Shown here: one piece after another, positions 7,228 through 18,667 of the stretch | Numbering within the stretch: position 1 is the stretch's first letter | Layout: each line of letters opens with the position of its first letter | Notes under the pieces: model-generated | The model's input: the letters and a program-made list of their open reading frames with translations, nothing else | Database searches by the model: none | Told to the model about the DNA's origin: nothing | Position numbers and translations under genes: made by a program | Origin: Lentisphaeria bacterium | Lineage (GTDB): Bacteria > Verrucomicrobiota > Lentisphaeria > Victivallales > UBA1829 | Assembly (NCBI GenBank): GCA_017615635.1 | Contig: JAFZZR010000062.1 | Span: 12,123 to 76,122, forward strand | Direction of reading: 5' to 3' | DNA: 64,000 nucleotides

Positions 7228-9702
7228 TTACGGGTGGATATGCAGCACTCCGAAACGGTCGATCCCCTTTATGTAGGAATCGGTAAAAATCGGATTCCAG
7301 ACGGCATTGCCGGAAGGTGTGGTACGCATAAAATTCAAGGACATCTGTGAACCTTTCAACGGCAGCTTATTCAGCGGGATCGCCATAAGGACGGTCCATG
7401 ATTCATCGGTTGAACTGCTGCTGATCACGGCATTGAACTCGTACGGTTCAACAGTATCTTTTCCATCCTTCAAAATGTGTTTGTATTGATAGGAGGTCCC
7501 GTTCGGACCGACGGCGAGATGAAAGACTGGGTAACCTTTTCCATCGTGAAAGAAAACTTCGAAGTTTTCACGCCAGAAATTGAGCACATTCTCTGCCGGA
7601 GAACCATCCGTAAATTTGAGGTAAAGGTATTCTGAATCTGCGACCAGTTCCGCGCGGCATTTTCTTTCAGCCGTTTTGCCGTACAGATTCTGCCAGGTTT
7701 CAGTTTTTACAGATTTGGACCAGTCGACTTTTGACAAATCGCCGTTTATATTTCCCGAAGTCATGACCTGCAGACGATACGGCAATTCGCTTTTTTTCAT
7801 TTTGTCCAGTCGGTATTCGCGTTCTCCTTCGAGCGCATTTGTCCAGATGCCGTCGATAAAACGCTGGAGGCGGATCTTTTCTTCCGGCGTCCTGGTCAGT
7901 TTCTTTGCCTCTTCGATCAGCCCGGCAAGTTTCTTCATGCGTTCCGGCGTACCCAGCGACCAGTTGACATCCGGAGAATGCAGCCCCATTCCCCAGTAGG
8001 GATGCAGTTCCCCCTTGGGCCCGACAACGACATTTTTATCCATGAGCCATTCCTCTGGACAGTTGGCGGGATTCCAGTACGCTTTCTCGACTTCCCGATA
8101 AAATTCTTTCATGACAGGACCTGCCTCGCCGTAATAATGTTCGAAAAAGTCATCGATGACTTGTCCGGGATCAAGAGATGAATCGTAACATATTCTTGCC
8201 GCGACGTAGGCTTCAAGGTGATTGCACTGCATGTCAACTTCCGTAAACCATCCTTTTATTCCGTCTTTTGCAAACATTTTGAACAATTCGCCCGTTTTCC
8301 ATGGATAGAGCCCCGGAAACGGTTTGTAATTTCCAAAGTACCGGCGTGAATCATAATAGGGACTGAACAGATATGTCCAAAGTGTCAGAGGCCGTTTCTG
8401 CCCCTCTTTGGCGATCCATTCTCTGTATGCATCCATCTGCTTTTGACAGGCGACAGGGTGCCACCATGTACAAATGGGCAGACACAACTGTACGGATACA
8501 TTGGGCGGAAGAGAAACCTTGTCCGGATAACGGAGGGTCTGGATATAGGCCAGAGAAGAAACTCCTGCCGCCGGATCCGTTTCAGCCGCTTTGCGTGCGA
8601 CGTCGGCAATGAATTGGAATTTATTATTGGAGACATCATCTTTGGTGTCTTCCGGGAAACGATTCCGGCAATCGGGGCAGAGACAGTGTCCGCCGGTATC
8701 TCCCCCCTGGATCGGATAGAAAAACGGTTTGCCTTCGAACCGGGGGACGAGCGTACGGTTCGGCGGGATATTCCCGTGAAAATTCATCCAGCCGCCGCGG
8801 ACATTGCCGCCGTTGAAATAGGTGAGAACTTCCTCTGCGTAGTAGTCAACCGTTCCCTTGTTGGAGTAGCAGAGCTGCGGCGGCAGATCCTTGTCGTTTG
8901 GATAATTCCCGCGCAGGATGGCGTCGACATCCGCCATCTTTCCATCATACCCCTTGGCAAACAGTTCTTTCCGTTTATACTTGAATGCTCTGCCAAGCCA
9001 ATACATTTTTGCCTTGTCCCAGTGTGCAAAATAAATGCTGTACTGGTTGTGATTGTTGCGTCCGTATAAGGAACTCATGCGCCAGCGAAGCTGCCAGAGA
9101 GCAAAATCCCGGGGCACTATCTCGTTTCTGGCAAAACGTTTGTCCTTGTAGTAAACGTAACGGAAGGCATCCATTTGCGGACTGAAAACACGATTTTCCT
9201 CCTTTACGGATAGATTTTCGGATGCCTTATAAAAAGTCCCGGCCTCATCCATACCGTAGAACCGGACGCCGCAATACAGTTCGAGAAAATCATACACGGC
9301 GAACAACGAACCTTTGCACTCATATTCGAGTTTTGGAAATGTGTCGGGATTATGGTAATCGACTTTTTCGAAGACCGGAGAATCATTTCCCGTCAGAAGC
9401 AACGTATTTCCTCTGAATTCGATTTTGCTCGAATCTCCGGTCAATCCGCTGTTATCTCCGCCGATCTTGACTGTATTCATTCCCGGAGAGACATTGCCCG
9501 CCACAATGGGAAGTTCGACCCCCGTGATCGATTTTACATGATGCTGCAATTCATATGCACCAAGCTGTGCACTCTTGGTCGCCTTTGCATCCAGAAGGAT
9601 CACCGCTGCGGGCTTTCCATTGCGGACAAGTGAAAAATCGGCGAATACCGCTAACGGCAAAAATGCGAAAATCGATAAAATGAATCTCTTGAAAGGTTTC
9701 AT
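7228..9702 (-). CDS. Secreted DUF4838-like glycan-active protein with CBM9/DOMON-like region (paralog of 2677..5661)
   Basis: Signal peptide MKPFKRFILSIFAFLPLAVFA. Shares the blocks LFAVYDFLELYCGVRFYG, GGDTGGHCLCPDC and PDVNWSLGTPERMKKLAGLIEEA with the + strand copy. A 54-aa hand-aligned segment has 35 identities. Confidence 0.85.
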   Translation of the reverse strand: MKPFKRFILSIFAFLPLAVFADFSLVRNGKPAAVILLDAKATKSAQLGAYELQHHVKSITGVELPIVAGNVSPGMNTVKIGGDNSGLTGDSSKIEFRGNTLLLTGNDSPVFEKVDYHNPDTFPKLEYECKGSLFAVYDFLELYCGVRFYGMDEAGTFYKASENLSVKEENRVFSPQMDAFRYVYYKDKRFARNEIVPRDFALWQLRWRMSSLYGRNNHNQYSIYFAHWDKAKMYWLGRAFKYKRKELFAKGYDGKMADVDAILRGNYPNDKDLPPQLCYSNKGTVDYYAEEVLTYFNGGNVRGGWMNFHGNIPPNRTLVPRFEGKPFFYPIQGGDTGGHCLCPDCRNRFPEDTKDDVSNNKFQFIADVARKAAETDPAAGVSSLAYIQTLRYPDKVSLPPNVSVQLCLPICTWWHPVACQKQMDAYREWIAKEGQKRPLTLWTYLFSPYYDSRRYFGNYKPFPGLYPWKTGELFKMFAKDGIKGWFTEVDMQCNHLEAYVAARICYDSSLDPGQVIDDFFEHYYGEAGPVMKEFYREVEKAYWNPANCPEEWLMDKNVVVGPKGELHPYWGMGLHSPDVNWSLGTPERMKKLAGLIEEAKKLTRTPEEKIRLQRFIDGIWTNALEGEREYRLDKMKKSELPYRLQVMTSGNINGDLSKVDWSKSVKTETWQNLYGKTAERKCRAELVADSEYLYLKFTDGSPAENVLNFWRENFEVFFHDGKGYPVFHLAVGPNGTSYQYKHILKDGKDTVEPYEFNAVISSSSTDESWTVLMAIPLNKLPLKGSQMSLNFMRTTPSGNAVWNPIFTDSYIKGIDRFGVLHIHP

Positions 9703-9742: not shown

Positions 9743-10546
9743 TTACAGCGATTTTAAAAGTTTGAATTCATCATAATAATAGGCCGATCCCTCGTACTGG
9801 GCATCTCCATTCACCAGATTATCCTTGAATTCGGCGGGCTCCGTCGCGGCGACATGGCCATCCAGATACATCAGATTCATCTTTCTGGAATGTCTTGAAT
9901 GAAATCTTCCCAACGAGGTACTTTCTGCAGGATTGACTATACAATACTGTGCCTTTCCCCAGTATTGGTTGTCGACATAGGAATCCCCGCCGAACATTGC
10001 CGTAGTCGGGTGTTTAAGAGCCCCCAGGTTGATAAAGATCTGGTTTTCATTGCCGCGTATGATTACATATTTTTTTGTTGCGTTCCAATATAAGAGACCG
10101 TACGTTACTCTTTTTTGCTGTTTTGCTTCAGAAGTGGTTTTCGATGCCGTCGGGTCCAAAGGCAGCGGCAGATCCGGGCAAAGCAGCAGATTGAAGTCTT
10201 CAGGGATATAACCGCCGTCAACTAGAAACTCCGCCCATCCGTATTGAACTTTATACTTCGATGACTCGGAGGGCATATAATTCTGAACCAGGATCAAAGA
10301 ATTCCAGTCATTCGCATAATTCAGCCCGGCAAGAATTACCTGCCGCTCATTATTTATGCACGTTACTGCGCGGCCTGTCGCTTTCACCTTGCTCAATGCG
10401 GGAAGGAGCATTCCCGCCAGCACGGCGATAATGGCGATAACAACCAGCAATTCTATAAGGGTGAAAAACACTCCTGATCTCAACTTTTCGTTTCTTTTCA
10501 CTTTTGCACTCCTTCTGTTGTTTTTATTATTGCTACAGAAAAACAT
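9743..10546 (-). CDS. Prepilin-type N-terminal methylation-domain protein, H-X9-DG family
   Basis: [26 protein letters not shown], plus the canonical C-terminal motif [12 protein letters not shown] (H, 9 residues, DG) followed by H. Confidence 0.88.
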
Positions 10547-10574: not shown

Positions 10575-11615
10575 TTATTTCACCGGAAATGTCTCTCTCG
10601 AAATAAAGTGCGATCCCACAACGATTTCCCGTTCCGTTTTGCCCGCAATCTGCCCGAAGATCCCGCGGCCCAATGCCGCACCGATCTCTTCCGCATCCGC
10701 GGAAACCGTGGAAAGCCGCCGGTCGGCAACGGTCTCATCGTAGGTTTCATAATCGCCGTACCCGACAACAAACACATCTTTTCCGACTTTGATCCCTGCC
10801 GATTCCAACGCATCGCAAACGCCCATGGCGCTTGCATCGGAATCGCACCAGATGAACTTGTAGCGCTTCAACTCTTCCAGATGCATCATGCAGAAGCGAA
10901 GGGATGTCCGGTAATCCGCAAGGATCCCGTTTCCGGGATAAAACATGCCGTCAAGCGAATATCCGCTGCCGGGGTATACAATCTTTCCCGCACGCTCCGC
11001 CTCATTCCGGCGGATGTCGACCACAGTCGATTTCCGTCCGAAAAAAAGCATTTTTTTCAAGCATCGTTTCGGAATGTTCCGCCAGATCTCGCAGAACGCC
11101 GCGGTGTCGTCCCGCTGAATATGGTTCACGTTCGCAATGGAAACGCCGGATTCGCAGACCACCCAGAGGGGAGACTTCACCTTGTCCAGCATCGCTCTGA
11201 CGCCGCCTCCGATCATGGATGGTCCGGTCACATAGCCGTCTGCAACGCCTGACATCAGAAAATTGCTCACCTGGGTATCCATGGTTTCGCTGCCGTTGGC
11301 ATAAAGCAGACTGAGGACATAGCCGTGTTTCTGAATCTCGGCGCTTAACCCGCAGATGATCCGCGCCCAGTCGTGGGCTGCGAAGTCCAGCCGCATGTTT
11401 CCGAGGATCATTCCGATCTTATAAGTTTTCCCGGTGACGATGGACCGGCCGGAATAACTGGGACGGTATCCGAGTTCATCGCTGATCGCCTGGATTTTCT
11501 TCCGGACCTTTTCGCTGATGAGAGAAGCGGTTTCCGGATTCAGGGCGCGTGAAACGGTCGCCCAGTTGACCCCGGCTTTTTCCGCAATGCTTTTGATCGT
11601 CACACGCTGCTTCAT
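10575..11615 (-). CDS. LacI-family transcriptional regulator
   Basis: Start chosen at MKQRVTIKSIAEKAGVNWATVSRALN (HTH), with AAGAAAGGG RBS. The C-terminal periplasmic-binding-fold-like sequence is typical of LacI/GalR. Confidence 0.9.
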   Translation of the reverse strand: MKQRVTIKSIAEKAGVNWATVSRALNPETASLISEKVRKKIQAISDELGYRPSYSGRSIVTGKTYKIGMILGNMRLDFAAHDWARIICGLSAEIQKHGYVLSLLYANGSETMDTQVSNFLMSGVADGYVTGPSMIGGGVRAMLDKVKSPLWVVCESGVSIANVNHIQRDDTAAFCEIWRNIPKRCLKKMLFFGRKSTVVDIRRNEAERAGKIVYPGSGYSLDGMFYPGNGILADYRTSLRFCMMHLEELKRYKFIWCDSDASAMGVCDALESAGIKVGKDVFVVGYGDYETYDETVADRRLSTVSADAEEIGAALGRGIFGQIAGKTEREIVVGSHFISRETFPVK

Positions 11616-11643
11616 AGGAACCCTTTCTTGTTGTTTTGCCCTT

Positions 11644-11680
11644 AATATAGCACGGGGCTTTGACAATGCAAATGTTTGCA
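11644..11680 (-). promoter_or_regulatory. Candidate lacI-family promoter with overlapping palindromic operator
   Basis: On the minus strand: TTGCAT (11671-11666), 16-nt spacer, TATATT (11649-11644), about 30 nt upstream of ATG 11615. The 14-bp palindrome TGCAAA-TG-TTTGCA (11667-11680) overlaps the -35. Confidence 0.4.
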
Positions 11681-11761
11681 AAAACTTTTTTCCGCGATGT
11701 GAAATTGATTTCCTGATTTGCAGGCCATGGACTTTTTACGCAAAAAGATGCTCATTTTCAC

Positions 11762-11790
11762 TTGCATAATCGCTTGTGCGAGAGTATAGT
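11762..11790 (+). promoter_or_regulatory. Near-consensus sigma70-type promoter directly abutting the ATPase start codon
   Basis: TTGCAT (11762-11767), 17-nt spacer, TATAGT (11785-11790). ATG at 11801, only 10 nt after the -10 hexamer. Confidence 0.45.
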
Positions 11791-11800
11791 TTCCGCCATC

Positions 11801-13306
11801 ATGAGGATTCTTTCTGTCAGAAATCTCCGCGGCATTCCAAAGCTGGACTTCACGGTTCCGGACCGGCCCGGTGCGTATCTGCTCACCGGAGCCAACGGCG
11901 CCGGCAAATCCACGGTCCTTTCCTGCCTCGCGCAGCTGGGCGATCCCGGTGCACTGGACCGTTTTTTCACGCCGAACATCCGTTTTTCCGACTTCGATGC
12001 AGACGACGTCTACCGGGATTCCTTGATTCGTTTCGAGGCGGACGGGAAAGTCGTGGAGTTCCGCTATCGTTCCGGGAAATGGCGTGCCGCGGGGGAGGAA
12101 ACGGAAAACAAACTGGATCTCTTTGGTTTCTCCTCCGTCGTGTTTGCCGGAGAAAAGCGCAAAGTCTTCCCCGAGCCGGGGGAAACGTTCTCCATCCGGG
12201 CGGTCCGCCCGGCCCCGGAAAATCTGCGCAGCGCGGCGGCGGAAATTTTCGACGACGAAAAGTTTCATCAGCTGCATGTGGTGAAGAGCGAAATCACGGG
12301 CACGGAATTCTTTCTGATCCGCCGGTTCGAGGCAGGCGAGGACCGCTTTTTCAGTGAAAACAACTTCGGTTCCGGAGAGCGGGCGGTCCTCCGGCTGATC
12401 GCGCGGATCCAGTCGCTTCCGCCCTCGGCGCTGATCCTGCTGGACGAAGCGGAGATGGCGCTCCATCCGCGTGCGAGGAAACGTCTGTGGGAATATCTGC
12501 GGCGGACCGCCGCCGCAAGGTCTTTCGTGATCCTGGTCTCCACGCAGTCCGCCAGCCTTATCCGCGGGGCCGACCGAGGCCGGATCCTCCTTCTGGAAAA
12601 TGACGGAGCCGACGGTCTGGTCTGCCGGAACGACGTCTATCCCGCCGCCGTACTGGGCGAAATGGCGCTGCCCGAAGACATTCTGCCGGAGGTCCTGCTG
12701 CTGGTGGAGGATCAGGAAGCCTCCATGCTGCTGAACGCCATCGTGGACAAGCTCCGAGCCTGCATGGATCAGGAATTCCCCTACTGCCGGATCCTGCCTG
12801 TGGGCGGATATATGCAGGTCGTCATCCTGATGGACAATCTCTCCCGGGTTCTGCCCGCGTATATCCAGAAACGGGCCGTTCTGGACCGCGATGCGAAGCC
12901 CTTCATCGCAAAAGCGCTGGAATCTCCGGGCCGGTCTCATTTCGATGTGGTGGAGCGCAACCGGAAACAGATATTTTATCTGCCCTGCGCCCCGGAACAG
13001 GGGGTGATCCGTCTGCTGGAAAGCGATGTCCGGAGACACTCCCGGGGACTTTCGGAACTCTTTTGCGGACGGAGTCCGCATCTGGAGGACATCGTCTACC
13101 ACGATGCGCGATATCGGGCCGTGCCCGGCACGAACCGGGCGGACTGCAAGGAGAAGCTCTCGCTGATCGTGCGCGGGATCATGAAAATCTCCGGAGAACC
13201 GGAGACGAACGTAAGGAAAAAACTCTACCGGTATTACGTTGAGAACCGGTATCGCAATATCCGGGAACTGAAAGAGGATTACTGTCCGCTGATTTTTCAG
13301 AAGTGA
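11801..13306 (+). CDS. ABC/SMC-type ATPase fused to a Toprim/DUF4435-like C-terminal domain (OLD / PARIS AriA-AriB-like defence candidate)
   Basis: Start at MRILSVRNLRGI. Walker A GANGAGKST, signature-like NFGSGERAV, Walker B ILLDEAEMALHP. Then LLLVEDQEAS (conserved Glu), LPVGGY and VLDRDAKP (DxD), in the order expected for a Toprim-type nuclease domain. Confidence 0.75.
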   Translation: MRILSVRNLRGIPKLDFTVPDRPGAYLLTGANGAGKSTVLSCLAQLGDPGALDRFFTPNIRFSDFDADDVYRDSLIRFEADGKVVEFRYRSGKWRAAGEETENKLDLFGFSSVVFAGEKRKVFPEPGETFSIRAVRPAPENLRSAAAEIFDDEKFHQLHVVKSEITGTEFFLIRRFEAGEDRFFSENNFGSGERAVLRLIARIQSLPPSALILLDEAEMALHPRARKRLWEYLRRTAAARSFVILVSTQSASLIRGADRGRILLLENDGADGLVCRNDVYPAAVLGEMALPEDILPEVLLLVEDQEASMLLNAIVDKLRACMDQEFPYCRILPVGGYMQVVILMDNLSRVLPAYIQKRAVLDRDAKPFIAKALESPGRSHFDVVERNRKQIFYLPCAPEQGVIRLLESDVRRHSRGLSELFCGRSPHLEDIVYHDARYRAVPGTNRADCKEKLSLIVRGIMKISGEPETNVRKKLYRYYVENRYRNIRELKEDYCPLIFQK

Positions 13307-13328
13307 CCGAATCCGGGAGAATGGTTCT

Positions 13329-14411
13329 ATGTCCTGCCGTCTGGAATTCCAAAACATCTGCAAACGCTACGCCGGATCCGCCCCGGTGCTCCAGGATCTT
13401 TCTCTGACCGTGGAGCCCGGCGAGCTCTTTTTCCTTCTGGGTCCCTCGGGATGCGGAAAGTCCACCCTTCTCCGGATCGCCGCCGGACTTATCGAGCCGG
13501 ATTCGGGCCGGATCCTCGCGGACGGAAAGGACATCGGTGCTCTGCCTCCGGAACGGCGCGGCATGCCCATGGTGTTCCAAAGCTATGCTCTCTGGCCGCA
13601 CATGGACGTCTTCGAAAACGTGGCTTTCGGACTGAAGATCCGGAAAATGTCCGCCCCCGAGATCCGGACTCGGGTGGAATCCATTCTTGAAGCCGTTCAG
13701 ATGACTCCGTACATCCGGAGAAAGATCACCGCTCTTTCCGGCGGACAGCAGCAGCGTGTGGCGCTGGCCCGAGCTCTGGTGCTGGATCCTTCCGTTCTTC
13801 TTCTGGACGAACCCCTTTCCAACCTGGATGCGAAGCTGCGCGACGCCATGCGCACCGAGATCCGCAGGATCTGCAAGGAAAAGGAACTGACCGCCGTCTA
13901 TGTCACACACGACCGCCGCGAGGCCTTGAGCATGGCCGACCGGATCGCCGTTCTGAAGTTCGGGCAGGTCCGGCAATGCGGAACGCCCCGGGAAATCTAC
14001 CGGATGCCCCGGGACCGCTTCACCGCCTCCTTCCTGGGCGACGTCAACTTTCTCACGGGATGCTGCCTCGGACGGGAAGACACGTTCTGCGTCTTCGAGA
14101 CGGAAGTCGGCAAGCTCCGTGCCGCACCCGGCTGGGGAGATCCTCCCGCGCCCGGCGAAACCCGCACTCTCATGTTCCGTCCGGAATCCGTCCGGTTCGA
14201 CGCGGCGGAGTCCGAGATCAATTCGTTCTCCGCACAGATCCGGGAAAGCTGGTTCCTCGGCGAAATCACCCAGACAAGTCTGGCGGCCGGATCCTTTGTC
14301 TTCACGGCCAACGAACAGGCCGCCCCCGACCGGGCGCACGGGACCGGACTGCGGGTCCGGATCAGTCCGGAGCATCTGGTCGTTCTCTCCCCGGATCCGG
14401 AGGAGGATTGA
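13329..14411 (+). CDS. ABC importer ATP-binding subunit (PotA/FbpC-like)
   Basis: GPSGCGKSTLLR, LSGGQQQRVALARAL and LLLDEPLSNLD, plus a C-terminal TOBE-like regulatory domain. Confidence 0.9.
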   Translation: MSCRLEFQNICKRYAGSAPVLQDLSLTVEPGELFFLLGPSGCGKSTLLRIAAGLIEPDSGRILADGKDIGALPPERRGMPMVFQSYALWPHMDVFENVAFGLKIRKMSAPEIRTRVESILEAVQMTPYIRRKITALSGGQQQRVALARALVLDPSVLLLDEPLSNLDAKLRDAMRTEIRRICKEKELTAVYVTHDRREALSMADRIAVLKFGQVRQCGTPREIYRMPRDRFTASFLGDVNFLTGCCLGREDTFCVFETEVGKLRAAPGWGDPPAPGETRTLMFRPESVRFDAAESEINSFSAQIRESWFLGEITQTSLAAGSFVFTANEQAAPDRAHGTGLRVRISPEHLVVLSPDPEED

Positions 14412-14414
14412 TCC

Positions 14415-15983
14415 ATGTGGAAACGTCTTCTCCCCGCGCTGCTTCCTCTGGCTGTCCTTCTGGCGCTGCCGCTGTATCTCCGGCCCGCGCAGGATGACGG
14501 ACAGAACGATTCCGGCTCCGCAAAGCCGGATCTGCTGGTCATCGTGACCCCGCATACGGAACAGATCCGCTACGAGATCGACCATGCCTTCCGCAAGTAT
14601 TACCGGGAGAAGTTCGGCCGTCCCGTGGAGATCGACTGGCGGAACGTGGGCGGGACCTCGGACATCGTCCGGTATATCGCCGACCGCTTCGAAGCGCAGT
14701 TCCGGATGAAGTACGAGGAATCCGGAGGCACGTGGACCAAGGAAACGGCTGTATCCTTCAAAGATCCGAAAGCGGATCCGGCGAAATGTCCCGAGCGGAA
14801 AATGTTTCTGGAGTCGAATACGGGGATCGGGATCGACGTCTTCTTCGGAGGCGGCTCCTACGATCACGGCAAGTTCGCAAAAATCGGCTTCGCCGTTCCC
14901 GGCGGCGTGGAGACGCGTCACCCCGAATGGTTCGCGCCCGACGTCATTCCCCTGACTCACGCAGGGGAGCAGATCCGCGATCCTCAGGGCCGGTACTACG
15001 GGGTCTGCCTCTCCTCCTTCGGGATCGCCTACAATCCCGACCGCTACCGGGAGATGGATCTGCCGCCGCCCGAGAACTGGAAGGACCTGGGGCGTCCGGA
15101 ACTTTTCCGGAAGACCGAGGCTGCGGACCCGGCGAAATCCGGATCCATCACGAAATGTTTCGAAATGATCCTTCAGCAGTCCATGGCCGAGCACGGTCCG
15201 GAAAAAGGATGGCGCGAAGGTTTTCTCCTGATCCGCAGGATCGCCGCCAATGCCCGATGCGTCACCGACAGCGCCGGCAAACTGGTCCGCGACATCTCTT
15301 CGGGCGCGGCCGCCGCCAGCATGTGCATCGACTTCTACGGCCTTTCCGAAGCTGAATTTTCCGCCTCCGTTTCCCGGGGACAGACCCGGCTCGTCTACGT
15401 CATGCCGCGCAACGGGTCCTCCGTCTCCGCCGATCCCGTTCAGCTCCTCCGCGGCGCCCCCAACCCGAAAACCGCGCAGGCTTTTCTGGATTTCCTCCTC
15501 TCGCCCGAAGGGCAGGCCCTCTGGATGCGGAAGCCCGGCACCCCCGGCGGCCCTGTGAAGTATTCGCTCCTCCGTCCCTGCGTACGGATGGATCTGTACG
15601 GAACGATCCCGGATGACGAATGCGCCATTCCGGGATACAATCCCTACCGTTCCAGCGGCACGTTCCAGTATCACGGCGAGTGGACAGGCCGATGGTTCAG
15701 CCTCATCCGCGTGCTCATAAAATCCATAGCGCTGGATCCGCTGGACGATCTTCAGGATGCCTGGTGCGCCATCCTCGAAAACGGCGGACCGGAGAAGAAT
15801 CCCGAGGCCATGGCTCTCTTTGCGGCCATGCCCTTCGAACTCGCGCAGGCACCCGAGGCCGCCAAACGTCTTTCCGGCACTCCGCAGGAATCCGCCGCCG
15901 TCCGCAGGGAGTGGACGGCCTTCTCCTCGGAGAATTTCCGGAAAGCGGCCCGAATCGCCCGGGAGAAAGGAAAGACGAAATGA
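14415..15983 (+). CDS. ABC importer periplasmic substrate-binding protein (iron(III)/polyamine-type family)
   Basis: Signal peptide MWKRLLPALLPLAVLLALPL. Positioned between the ATPase and the permease. Its stop overlaps the permease start (ATGA at 15980-15983). Confidence 0.8.
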   Translation: MWKRLLPALLPLAVLLALPLYLRPAQDDGQNDSGSAKPDLLVIVTPHTEQIRYEIDHAFRKYYREKFGRPVEIDWRNVGGTSDIVRYIADRFEAQFRMKYEESGGTWTKETAVSFKDPKADPAKCPERKMFLESNTGIGIDVFFGGGSYDHGKFAKIGFAVPGGVETRHPEWFAPDVIPLTHAGEQIRDPQGRYYGVCLSSFGIAYNPDRYREMDLPPPENWKDLGRPELFRKTEAADPAKSGSITKCFEMILQQSMAEHGPEKGWREGFLLIRRIAANARCVTDSAGKLVRDISSGAAAASMCIDFYGLSEAEFSASVSRGQTRLVYVMPRNGSSVSADPVQLLRGAPNPKTAQAFLDFLLSPEGQALWMRKPGTPGGPVKYSLLRPCVRMDLYGTIPDDECAIPGYNPYRSSGTFQYHGEWTGRWFSLIRVLIKSIALDPLDDLQDAWCAILENGGPEKNPEAMALFAAMPFELAQAPEAAKRLSGTPQESAAVRREWTAFSSENFRKAARIAREKGKTK

Positions 15984-17665
15984 AGTTGTTTCTGCGTAAG
16001 ATCCGGCCCGGCGTTCTGCTTTCCATGCTGTTTCTCTGCGTGTTCTTCACGCTCTTCCTTTTCCTGCCTCTCTTTACGGTCCTGCGCGAAGGATTGAACT
16101 TCGGTGTCTTTCTGGAGATTTTCCGGAATCATCTGTACCGGGAGGGCATGTGGAATGCGCTGCTCATCAGCCTCACCACCACCGCCTTGGTCTTTCTCTT
16201 TTCCTTTCCGCTGGCTCTGCTGTACGATCAGTTCGAATTCCCCGGAAAATCCGCCTGTCCCGTCCTCATGATGGCACCCATGATCCTTCCGCCCTTCGTT
16301 GGCGCTCTGGAATTCCAGCAGATCCTCGGACACTACGGGGTCCTGAATTCTCTTCTGGCGCTCTTCGATCTGGGACCGGTGGACTTTCTGGGCGGAGGCG
16401 GCCGGTTCTGGAGCGTCTGCCTCATCGAGGCCCTGCACCTCTATCCCATCGCCTACCTCAATCTGACCACTGCGCTGGCCAACCGGGATCCGGCGCTGGA
16501 CGAGGCGGCGCGGAATCTGGGGATCCCGGCCTGGCAGCGGTTCCTGCACATCACGCTGCCCCTGACGAAGCCGGGCATTCTGGCCGGCGGAAGCATCGTG
16601 CTCATCTGGAGCTTCACGGAGCTGGGAACGCCGCTCATGTTCGGATTCAATACCGTGACGCCCGTGCAGGTCTTCAACGGGATCACCGAGCTGGGGACCA
16701 ATCCCGCCGCCTACTCCCTGGTCATTGTCATGCTTCTCTTTTCCGCCGTCCTCTACCTCGCCGGAAAATTCCTCCTCGGCGCTCCCTCGACGGCCACCGC
16801 CGTCAAAGGCATCGCGGGTTCCGGATCCCGAATCCTGACCGGCGCCCGCCGATTCCTCCCCGGCCTCGCCTTCGGACTCTTCACCTTCCTGGCGGTCCTG
16901 CCCCATCTGGCGCTGATCCTGACCGCGTTCAGCGAATCCTGGTACCGGACGATCCTGCCCCTTCACTATTCGCTGATACATTTCCAGAACGCTCTCTCGG
17001 ACAAACTGGTGGCCCCCAGCATCGCCAACAGCCTGCGCTACTCCGTGGCCGCGACGGTTCTGGCGGTGGCCGCCGGATTTCTGGCGGCGTTCCTCTCCTG
17101 CCGCGTGCGCTCGCGTCTTTCCAGACTCTTCGATCTGGCGGGCATGCTCCCGCTCATGATCCCGGGCATCGTTCTGGCGGTGGGCTTCCTCGGCATGTCC
17201 ATCCGGTACGAGTGGGCCTCGCTTCTCTTCGATCCCGTTGCCAATCCCGTCCTCCTCATTGCCGCGGCCTATGCCATCCGGCGGGTCCCGTACGTCCTCC
17301 GGGCGGCGGCCAGCGGACTGGAACAGACTCCCGAGGAGCTGGAGAACGCCGCGCGGAATTCGGGCGCGGGACCCCTTCGCGCCCTGTGGAAGATCACGAT
17401 CCCGCTGATCGCCGCGAATCTGCTGGTGGGTGCGCTTTTCGCCTTCAGCTTCTCCATGATGGAAGTCTCGGACTCCCTGATCCTGGCGCAGAAAGCCCAG
17501 TTCTACCCCATCACCAAAGCCATCTACGAACTTTCCCAGTATCTTGGATCGGGGCCCTACGTGGCTGCCGCCTTCGGCGTCTGGGCCATGGCCTTCCTGG
17601 CCTCGTCGCTCCTCGCCGCATCCATCCTCCTCGGACGGAAGATCGGCGCCCTCTTCCGGATGTGA
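15980..17665 (+). CDS. ABC importer permease with duplicated 6-TM halves (FbpB/ThiP-like)
   Basis: Start at MKLFLRKIRPGVLL. Two repeats of the binding-protein-dependent transport motif region (AARNLG...ITLPL and AARNSG...ITIPL). Confidence 0.85.
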   Translation: MKLFLRKIRPGVLLSMLFLCVFFTLFLFLPLFTVLREGLNFGVFLEIFRNHLYREGMWNALLISLTTTALVFLFSFPLALLYDQFEFPGKSACPVLMMAPMILPPFVGALEFQQILGHYGVLNSLLALFDLGPVDFLGGGGRFWSVCLIEALHLYPIAYLNLTTALANRDPALDEAARNLGIPAWQRFLHITLPLTKPGILAGGSIVLIWSFTELGTPLMFGFNTVTPVQVFNGITELGTNPAAYSLVIVMLLFSAVLYLAGKFLLGAPSTATAVKGIAGSGSRILTGARRFLPGLAFGLFTFLAVLPHLALILTAFSESWYRTILPLHYSLIHFQNALSDKLVAPSIANSLRYSVAATVLAVAAGFLAAFLSCRVRSRLSRLFDLAGMLPLMIPGIVLAVGFLGMSIRYEWASLLFDPVANPVLLIAAAYAIRRVPYVLRAAASGLEQTPEELENAARNSGAGPLRALWKITIPLIAANLLVGALFAFSFSMMEVSDSLILAQKAQFYPITKAIYELSQYLGSGPYVAAAFGVWAMAFLASSLLAASILLGRKIGALFRM

Positions 17666-17982: not shown

Positions 17983-18011
17983 TTGAAAAGCATAACGTGT
18001 CGCGTTATATT
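17983..18011 (+). promoter_or_regulatory. higBA promoter with inverted-repeat operator
   Basis: TTGAAA (17983-17988), 17-nt spacer, TATATT (18006-18011). Inverted repeat ATAACG-N5-CGTTAT (17992-18008) spans the spacer and the -10. Confidence 0.5.
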
Positions 18012-18044
18012 GTGGACAGAACAAAAAACAGACTGGCCGGGAAG

Positions 18045-18320
18045 ATGATAAAGAGTTTCAGAGACAAGGAGACAGAGGCGGTTTTCAACGGGAATCGTTC
18101 CCGAAAACTGCCGGGCGATATACAAGTTTCGGCGCAGAAAAAATTGTGGCTTCTGGACGCAGTAACTGCTCCGGAAGAATTGAGAAATCTGCCAGGGAAC
18201 CGCTTCGAGGCATTGAACGGGCGCCCGGGATTTTACAGTATCCGGGTCAACGCCCAATGGCGCGTCACGTTTTCATGGAACGACGGCGCGGAGAACGTCA
18301 AGATAGAAGATTATCATTGA
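18045..18320 (+). CDS. higB: HigB-type (RelE/ParE superfamily) toxin
   Basis: MIKSFRDKETEAVFNG...KLPGDIQVSAQKKLWLLDAV...LPGNRFEALNG...YSIRVNAQWRVTF is the classic HigB 'killer protein' pattern. Toxin-first gene order. Confidence 0.85.
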   Translation: MIKSFRDKETEAVFNGNRSRKLPGDIQVSAQKKLWLLDAVTAPEELRNLPGNRFEALNGRPGFYSIRVNAQWRVTFSWNDGAENVKIEDYH

Positions 18321-18334
18321 AACGGAGGAAAATC

Positions 18335-18667
18335 ATGGCAAACGAAGAAAAATATCTTCCGCCAATCCATCCCGGCGAGATACTGAAAACAGAATTTCTG
18401 GAGCCCCTGAATCTTTCGCAGAACAGACTGGCAAAGGAGATCGGAGTACCTCCGCGCCGCATCAACGAAATCGTCCACGGCAAGAGGGCGATCACGGCGG
18501 ATACGGCCTTGCGGTTCAGTAAATTTTTCGGGACGACGGCGCAGCTTTGGCTGAATCTGCAGTCTCATTATGAACTTGACTGCATCCTCTATGCCGAGCG
18601 AACCGGAAAAACCAAACGGTTCGATTCCATCAAACGATTCATCCCCAAGGTCGCCGCGGTTCTGTAA
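18335..18667 (+). CDS. higA: HigA-type HTH (XRE) antitoxin
   Basis: PIHPGEILKTEFLEPLNLSQNRLAKEIGVPPRRINEIVHGKRAITADTALRFSKFFGTTAQLWLNLQ. GGAGGAA RBS at 18325-18331. Starts 14 nt after higB. Confidence 0.9.
   Translation: MANEEKYLPPIHPGEILKTEFLEPLNLSQNRLAKEIGVPPRRINEIVHGKRAITADTALRFSKFFGTTAQLWLNLQSHYELDCILYAERTGKTKRFDSIKRFIPKVAAVL

Follow-up and report, generated by a model that had tools for sequence, protein, structure and literature searches.

Several described defence proteins join an ABC ATPase to a Toprim nuclease domain. HEC-04 (PADLOC PDLC04149) is a single ABC ATPase-TOPRIM protein that protects Escherichia coli; the exchanges K62A and E319A/D375A/D377A abolish the defence, and induction of the protein causes toxicity (Payne et al. 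2024, bioRxiv 10.1101/2024.01.29.577857). The effectors of retron type I-B1 are composed of an ABC ATPase and a TOPRIM domain with the motif IV variant 'EDxxL', whereas 'EGxxE' is found in I-B2 and in OLD (Mestre et al. 2020). TsOLD, BpOLD, GajA and Retron-Eco8 cut DNA, and P2 OLD is described in a 2026 preprint as a tRNase which is released by destabilisation of its tetramer. Class 1 of the OLD family is defined by solitary genes (2023 review). Here we describe a gene of the ABC ATPase-Toprim type in a 64,000-nt stretch of DNA from a Lentisphaeria bacterium (assembly GCA_017615635.1, contig JAFZZR010000062.1, positions 12,123-76,122 of the forward strand), referred to below as the window.

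The gene probably encodes a stand-alone, compact OLD-family ABC ATPase-Toprim nuclease, and it would most likely act as a single-gene abortive-infection or anti-phage defence, a phenotype that we infer. Together with its homologues it forms an unnamed and rare sister family of OLD-type single-gene nucleases. A sequence-only reading of the same stretch had suggested that the protein may be a minimal or divergent member of an OLD- or PARIS-like group. The gene is indeed a solitary and compact ATPase-Toprim fusion, but it is not PARIS, and HEC-04 and the retron I-B1 effector had already shown the minimal design.

The gene and its product

The gene is contained in the open reading frame 11762..13306 on the + strand. 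The ATG at 11801 is preferred as the start codon over the TTG at 11762 because the N-termini of about 20 homologues align at this methionine. This gives a product of 501 amino acids. The gene and its parts are as follows.

11801..13306, + strand: whole gene, ABC ATPase-Toprim (OLD-like) protein of 501 amino acids (open reading frame list, homologue N-termini, PADLOC, AlphaFold2 model)
11801..12625, + strand: ABC ATPase head, residues 1-275 (Pfam AAA_21, PDB profile search, Foldseek)
12692..13000, + strand: Toprim core, residues 298-400 (secondary structure of the model, invariance in 44 homologues, PADLOC, hhalign)
13001..13303, + strand: C-terminal helical domain, residues 401-501 (helices 398-498 in the models; R446 and K450)

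All motif strings quoted in the sequence-only reading were found in the translation where it had placed them, and its position for the DxD motif (D362-R-D364 of VLDRDAKP, nt 12884-12892) is exact. The Walker A motif GANGAGKST corresponds to residues 30-38 and includes K36. The signature-region string SGERAV, which is part of FGSGERAV, covers residues 191-196, and the Walker B motif with the D-loop, ILLDEAEMALHP, covers residues 212-223 with D215 and E216. In the C-terminal half, LLLVEDQEAS is found at residues 299-308, where the codon of E303 occupies nt 12707-12709, and LPVGGY at residues 332-337. The motifs are not fortuitous, as the Pfam match of the ATPase, the conservation among homologues and the substitution pattern show. 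The gene is under purifying selection and is not decaying: each half has a ratio of nonsynonymous to synonymous substitution rates (dN/dS) of 0.11 when compared with a relative of 91% identity.

The C-terminal half is an OLD-type Toprim domain

The C-terminal half of the protein is an OLD-type Toprim nuclease domain. In the structure models, a helical bundle comes after a core of the form beta(298-302)-alpha-beta(329-333)-alpha-beta(356-361)-alpha-beta(391-393), and the fold carries the glutamate, the glycine after beta2 and the DxD motif that are characteristic of the OLD type. The model of the C-terminal domain alone is confident, with a predicted local distance difference test score (pLDDT) of 89 and a predicted template modelling score (pTM) of 0.81.

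The best PADLOC model for the protein is that of the retron type I-B ATPase-Toprim (PDLC02914), which aligns with residues 139-368 in one stretch (E=8.6e-25). The HEC-04 model covers residues 28-366 (E=3e-22). The alignments of both profiles extend across the Glu and DxD motifs. A search with only the C-terminal half still matches PDLC02914 over residues 300-368, with E=0.0054. The I-B and HEC-04 models also rank first for all ten distant members examined, which come from five phyla, with E-values down to 1.6e-43.

Profile-profile comparison with hhalign connects the C-terminal half to P2 Old through a protein of 583 amino acids encoded on the E. coli plasmid pSE11-2. The C-terminal profile matches this protein with 97% probability (E=9.8e-11), and the alignment covers the pattern YP...VED...GG...LDxD with the motifs in register. 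The pSE11-2 protein is itself an OLD-like ATPase-Toprim; in BLASTP it matches P2 Old with E=7e-4, and the pairs VED/VEG, GG/DGKG and DGD/DCD are in register. Directly against P2 Old, the full-length family profile reaches 95.6% probability from the Walker B motif through LLLVEDQEA/VLLVEGKTET. The match of the C-terminal profile alone to P2 Old is weak (E=0.24), with the motifs in register. A database search with the C-terminal profile returned family fragments only, and no relatives annotated as DUF4435 or Toprim. Ten more distant proteins of the 'ATP-dependent endonuclease' type were unusable as a bridge, as Pfam recognised a Toprim domain in none of them.

The pSE11-2 gene is a solitary gene of E. 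coli SE11 annotated as 'AAA family ATPase' (locus L068, 4983-6734) and is also present on about 25 other E. coli plasmids. It lies near repA on conjugative IncF plasmids, its product contains VED/GG/LDGD motifs, and it is apparently unnamed.

The sequence-only reading had proposed that a conserved glutamate is followed by a DxD motif in the order of a Toprim fold. Both are invariant in the family, and their counterparts in the alignments with P2 Old and the pSE11-2 protein are the Toprim Glu and DxD. On the Toprim or DUF4435 match over residues of about 300-500, on which that reading had made itself depend, the methods are divided: Pfam gives none and Foldseek stays below the threshold, while the PADLOC ATPase-Toprim models and hhalign to OLD are positive. 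Annotation of such proteins as 'AAA family ATPase' on the basis of Pfam overlooks the nuclease half.

Conserved catalytic residues

Conservation was assessed in an alignment of 44 homologues with 26-59% identity. The residues E303, D304, P333, D362, D364, P398, E399 and K450 are conserved in all of them, and A307, G335 and R446 in 98%. The resulting family motifs are E303-D304 (motif IV of the 'ED' type), G335-G336, D362-x-D364 and (T/A)397-P398-E399, with Ala397 in the window protein. The published active site of Bp OLD consists of E400/E404, the glycine after beta2, D455-x-D457, T506-x-E508 where the helical domain begins, and K562. The family invariants follow in the same order and at similar spacing:

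Toprim Glu to first Asp of DxD: 59 residues in the family, 55 in Bp OLD
DxD to metal-B Glu: 35 residues in the family, 51 in Bp OLD
Metal-B Glu to Lys: 51 residues in the family (E399-K450), 54 in Bp OLD (E508-K562)

K450 is a candidate equivalent of the catalytic lysine of OLD. Judged by this motif mapping, the two-metal-plus-lysine constellation appears to be complete in the C-terminal half.

The N-terminal half is a defence-type ABC ATPase

In the full-length protein, AAA_21 is the sole Pfam family above the gathering score (E=1.1e-18). The family profile searched against the PDB sequences retrieves retron/Septu PtuA, AriA and the Thermus scotoductus OLD protein (6p74) first, ahead of transporter ATPases. 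The full-length AlphaFold2 model (mean pLDDT 86.8) matches PtuA, OLD 6p74 and GajA in Foldseek with E-values of about 1e-10 (3e-10 and 556 aligned columns for 6p74), and also Rad50/SMC heads. Because of this profile ranking and these structural matches, the N-terminal half is assigned as a defence-type ABC ATPase, in line with the AAA_15/AAA_21-type ABC ATPase recognised in the sequence-only reading. It has the Walker A motif, signature region, Walker B motif and H-loop of the OLD-type ATPase, and the ATPase motifs are invariant across the family alignment. NCBIfam gives only sub-threshold matches of the full protein to ABC-transporter, RecF and PtuA families, all of them on generic motifs.

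In the hhalign alignment with P2 Old, residue 207 of the query pairs with residue 291 of the template, so that about 80 fewer residues precede the Walker B motif. This pairing indicates that the ATPase inserts are compact. No large helical insert is seen in the ATPase of the AlphaFold2 model, and a dimerisation insert like that of TsOLD is probably absent.

Comparison with HEC-04 and class 1 OLD proteins

Like HEC-04, the window protein is one polypeptide of about 500 amino acids in which an ABC ATPase is followed by an OLD-like TOPRIM domain, and no partner gene is present. The spacing of the motifs is also similar, with K62/E319/D375-D377 in HEC-04 and K36/E303/D362-D364 in the window protein. 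The HEC-04 model, however, reaches only 77 bits, with its 494-position profile matched from 52 to 379 (about 66%); this score is below that of the I-B model, and the C-terminal helical part of the window protein lies outside the match. Because of this partial match, the family would be a sister of HEC-04 rather than a close member of it. The genomic setting differs as well: HEC-04 was discovered inside Hma systems, whereas the genes of the present family occur in an importer operon or alone.

The structural match to 6p74 places the protein close to class 1 OLD. It is shorter, with 501 amino acids compared to 528 in TsOLD (6p74 chain) and 586 in P2 Old. The segment before Walker B is reduced by the roughly 80 residues mentioned above, a large dimerisation insert is not evident, and motif IV reads 'VED' instead of 'VEGxxE'.

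Distribution of the family

A first search returned about 35 full-length relatives, mostly from Lentisphaeria. A scan of the GTDB species genomes (185,579 species) yielded 58 loci. Eleven of these are from Victivallales or Lentisphaeria, with 50-59% identity and varying genome positions. The remaining loci encode full-length proteins of about 500 amino acids with 26-34% identity. These distant members come from Gammaproteobacteria (Acinetobacter, Ferrimonas, Marinomonas, Halomonas), Burkholderia, Luteibacter, Bacteroidota, Clostridia and Acidobacteria. When 1.84 billion representatives were searched exhaustively with phmmer, 132 clusters were obtained at E<=1e-30. The family is real, rare and phylogenetically patchy, and mostly uniform in length near 500 amino acids. 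Some copies are located on plasmids. The phage genome collection contained no full-length relative.

To describe the gene neighbourhood, the four genes on each side were considered, and the set comprised 96 neighbours of distant members; several high-GC loci with failed open reading frame calling were left out of this set. All-against-all BLAST of the neighbours revealed lineage-local synteny only and no recurring partner. Any given Pfam family is present in at most two of the 96 neighbours, and a recurrent reverse transcriptase, helicase or separate nuclease is not among them. The gene is a single gene without a conserved partner, and by its genomic context it fits OLD class 1. Some of the neighbours are defence genes, namely Hachiman HamA/HamB and the PADLOC candidates PDC-S46, PDC-M65A/B, PDC-M05A/B, PDC-S15 and PDC-S04, and other family copies lie among housekeeping genes. 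The family is in part associated with defence islands.

Proposed mode of action

By analogy with OLD, GajA, PARIS and HEC-04, the N-terminal ABC head would bind ATP and function as sensor and switch. It would recognise a cue of infection, which may be a phage protein or phage DNA that is aberrant or being replicated. Recognition of the cue could be followed by head-to-head dimerisation or another change of the oligomeric state, and the C-terminal Toprim domain would thereby be released as the effector. The Toprim domain is predicted to cleave nucleic acid by two-metal catalysis, with E303/D362/D364 at metal A, D304/E399 at metal B, and K450. The substrate may be DNA, as for TsOLD, BpOLD, GajA and Retron-Eco8, or tRNA, as for AriB and, according to the 2026 preprint, P2 OLD. 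The cleavage would halt phage replication or host translation and result in abortive infection.

The experimental basis for class 1 OLD proteins as defence is thin and consists mainly of P2 Old and HEC-04, and a 2023 review raises the question of whether broad defence is possible with a single cellular OLD protein. With its uniform length of about 500 amino acids and its invariant E-D/G/DxD/E/K site, the family is a clean minimal candidate for the gating of a Toprim domain by an ABC head without partners or large inserts. For Lentisphaerota/Victivallales, which are gut bacteria with an almost unknown phage biology, it provides an additional defence candidate.

Genomic context in the window

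The sequence-only reading had placed the gene between a LacI gene and an ABC importer, which is correct. The adjoining features are listed below.

10575-11615, - strand: LacI-family gene (Pfam)
11616..11800, no strand: intergenic region that separates the divergent LacI-family and ATPase-Toprim genes (sequence)
13329..17665, + strand: downstream ABC importer (Pfam)
13329-14411, + strand: importer ATPase with TOBE domain (Pfam)
14415-15983, + strand: importer solute-binding protein (Pfam)
about 15986-17665, + strand: fused importer permease (Pfam)

The importer ATPase gene begins 22 nt past the stop codon of the ATPase-Toprim gene. No terminator-like site is present within this 22-nt gap, and the two are probably co-transcribed. 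The divergent intergenic region contains a perfect LacI-type palindrome, TGCAAATGTTTGCA, at 11667-11680. It is unique in the window, where 0.1 matches are expected by chance, and represents a putative operator. The palindrome is absent near the gene in the related loci searched.

Opposing findings and alternative explanations

Several findings weigh against the assignment of the gene as an OLD-type defence nuclease. Pfam has no match on the C-terminal half, with Toprim, OLD and DUF4435 included, even at E<=10. Neither the single C-terminal sequence nor a 27-sequence profile of this half retrieves anything relevant from the PDB sequences, and no solved structure is reached. The C-terminal model alone has no Foldseek match in the PDB and BFVD at E<=1e-3, and flavodoxin-like folds are interleaved in the ranking. 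Its three best sub-threshold matches are GajA (E=0.03), the PARIS chain 8ux9_A (probability 0.69) and a viral RloB-like protein (0.82), all of which are Toprim relatives. In the ATPase half, the H-loop position is Gln249 in the window protein, as in most Victivallales members, while 84% of the family have histidine. The signature serine is shifted (FGSGE compared to the consensus FSxGE), which is limited to the closest relatives of the window protein. These two deviations suggest that hydrolysis may be slow, with ATP binding retained. The base composition and GC content of the gene are host-like, and in the window the gene is not within a defence island. Finally, a four-gene block of the ATPase-Toprim gene and the importer is conserved in the window and in five further distinct genomes with 56-91% identity, and both flanks differ each time. 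The loci with the conserved block are L001/L007, L003/L008, L009, L071 and L073.

This block raises the question of a link to the importer, and two explanations of such a link were considered. According to the first, an OLD-type nuclease has been fixed in one Victivallales lineage as the leader of a nutrient-importer operon. Defence would then be transcriptionally coupled to nutrient or glycan availability, or the nuclease would have taken on, by domestication, a role outside defence that is connected with the importer. The basis for this proposal is the conserved block, the LacI-family regulator with its operator-like palindrome in the window, and the H-loop Gln and shifted signature Ser in the lineage; we consider it unlikely. 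According to the second, the gene encodes an accessory or regulatory ATPase of the downstream importer, which is co-expressed with it under the LacI-family regulator and has no part in defence. The terminator-free gap of 22 nt, the upstream palindrome, the host-like composition and the synteny of the six genomes are what one would see in this case. However, other Victivallales members at 50-54% identity have the gene elsewhere without an adjacent importer, and the same is true for about 40 distant members. The importer is also complete without the gene: its orthologues in L074, L076 and L078 (56-59% identity of the solute-binding protein) are three-gene units preceded by unrelated genes. The solute-binding protein is far commoner than the ATPase-Toprim gene, with 1191 matches at E<=1e-30 compared to about 35 for the latter when searched in a similar way. 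The importer is already equipped with an ATPase of its own, which carries a TOBE domain. In the window protein, the importer-type family ABC_tran reaches 20.5 bits, below the cut-off of 25, and on the P-loop only. The invariant acidic, lysine and Toprim constellation and the homology to OLD, HEC-04 and retron effectors have no role in transport. An importer subunit is thus very unlikely. The sequence-only reading had named conserved synteny with the importer as a sign of a transport function. The linkage does exist in six related Victivallales genomes, but the gene is unlinked elsewhere and the importer exists without it, so that the reading as a nuclease stands. The linkage is best explained as an old insertion before the importer genes which was vertically inherited in one Victivallales subclade, and not by a transport function.

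The sequence-only reading had favoured PARIS in a fused form, that is an AriA-AriB fusion with a DUF4435 Toprim C-terminus. PARIS (AriA and AriB, OLD class 4) and Gabija GajA (OLD class 2) resemble the window protein in combining an ABC ATPase sensor with a Toprim effector. The ATPases are detectably homologous, and GajA and AriB are the top but weak structural neighbours of the C-terminal domain. PADLOC matches AriA with E=2e-18 and the fused AriAB model with E=2.4e-12, the PARIS chain is among the sub-threshold Foldseek matches listed above, and the classification of PARIS as OLD class 4 implies shared ancestry. The AriA/AriAB matches are nevertheless confined to ATPase residues 116-259 (147-259 for AriAB), so that the Toprim half is not covered. 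Pfam DUF4435 finds no match on this half at E<=10, and the DUF4435-like label and the proposed link to PARIS do not hold. The I-B and HEC-04 models score higher than the PARIS models for all 11 proteins tested. The size difference noted in the sequence-only reading is real: the 501 amino acids of the window protein are far below the 770 of PARIS (AriA 464 plus AriB 306; PDB 8ux9). It is much smaller than the PARIS and Gabija proteins and has no large ATPase insert. A fused PARIS is therefore given very little credence. With regard to Gabija, no GajB UvrD/PcrA-like helicase is adjacent in the window or recurs in the related loci, and the PADLOC GajA models score below I-B and HEC-04.

The retron I-B1 effector (OLD class 3B; PDLC02914) provides the best-scoring profile. 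It is compact (443 positions) and has the 'ED' motif IV; the invariant E303-D304 of the family is this I-B1 variant of the motif, which fits the I-B model being the best match. The gene could accordingly be seen as an orphaned or degenerate I-B1 effector whose reverse transcriptase as well as non-coding RNA were lost or are located elsewhere, and which would be inactive or constitutively toxic on its own. The ranking of the I-B model as the best PADLOC model for every member tested and the shared motif IV speak for this. On the other side, no reverse transcriptase lies among the neighbours of the gene in the window or recurs among the 96 neighbours of the distant members, and the Rfam scan of the window found no family and no retron non-coding RNA. 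The 132 clusters of mostly about 500 amino acids, the invariant catalytic residues and the dN/dS of 0.11 do not fit decaying remnants. The profile match stops at positions 357-385 of 443, so the C-terminal helical part differs. A retron remnant is hence highly improbable. The family looks like a stand-alone counterpart of the I-B1 effector, as Septu is to retron I-A. If true, such a counterpart would help explain the recruitment of pre-existing toxic effectors by retrons.

A housekeeping role in DNA repair or recombination, as a factor like RecF, RecN or SbcC that carries a Toprim domain and serves Victivallales genome maintenance, is scarcely credible: the weak RecF and SMC_N matches on the N-terminal P-loop region, the Rad50/SMC heads in Foldseek, the host-like composition and the presence of the gene in many Victivallales metagenome-assembled genomes point in this direction, but the RecF/SMC_N matches are below the curated cut-offs and on generic ABC motifs, PtuA, AriA and OLD rank first, just 11 Victivallales/Lentisphaeria species genomes of the 185,579 GTDB species carry the gene, its position varies, and the family is patchy across phyla and occurs on plasmids and beside Hachiman and candidate defence systems.

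Other features of the window and related loci

The only defence-like neighbour of the ATPase-Toprim gene in the window is a HigB/HigA pair 4.7 kb downstream, directly after the importer. The HigB-like toxin is encoded at 17997-18320 (Pfam HigB-like_toxin, E=8e-15) and is followed by an HTH_3 (XRE-type) antitoxin-like open reading frame inside 18146-18667. The GC content of this HigBA type II toxin-antitoxin pair (17997-18667, + strand) is 0.50, below that of the neighbouring genes. In the locus L073 (424-1877), which carries a 61%-identical relative, a HipA/HipB toxin-antitoxin pair lies upstream of the ATPase-Toprim-importer block, echoing the HigBA pair of the window.

Long open reading frames are also present on the opposite strand. 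One of 573 amino acids (11642..13363, - strand) spans the entire ATPase-Toprim gene, and a second of 831 amino acids (13179-15674, - strand) fully overlaps real + strand genes. Neither has homology support, and the same applies to many similar shadow frames across the window, where the GC content is 57-62%. The long antisense frames are an artefact of high GC content, typical of a high GC content at third codon positions.

The importer has an unusually large solute-binding protein (about 520 amino acids; SBP_bac_6/8/11) and a fused double permease, and it is very common in Lentisphaeria. Elsewhere, GH106-like or other glycan-related genes lie before it. In one source it carries the tentative label 'Fe3+ transport'. 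On the other side of the LacI-family gene, a 267-amino-acid protein with a segment resembling the prepilin-type N-terminal cleavage/methylation signal is encoded at 9743-10546 (- strand), without a Pfam match at 1e-4. It adjoins a DUF4838 protein of 824 amino acids (7228-9702, - strand), and in L001, too, the importer block has a DUF4838 gene at its flank.

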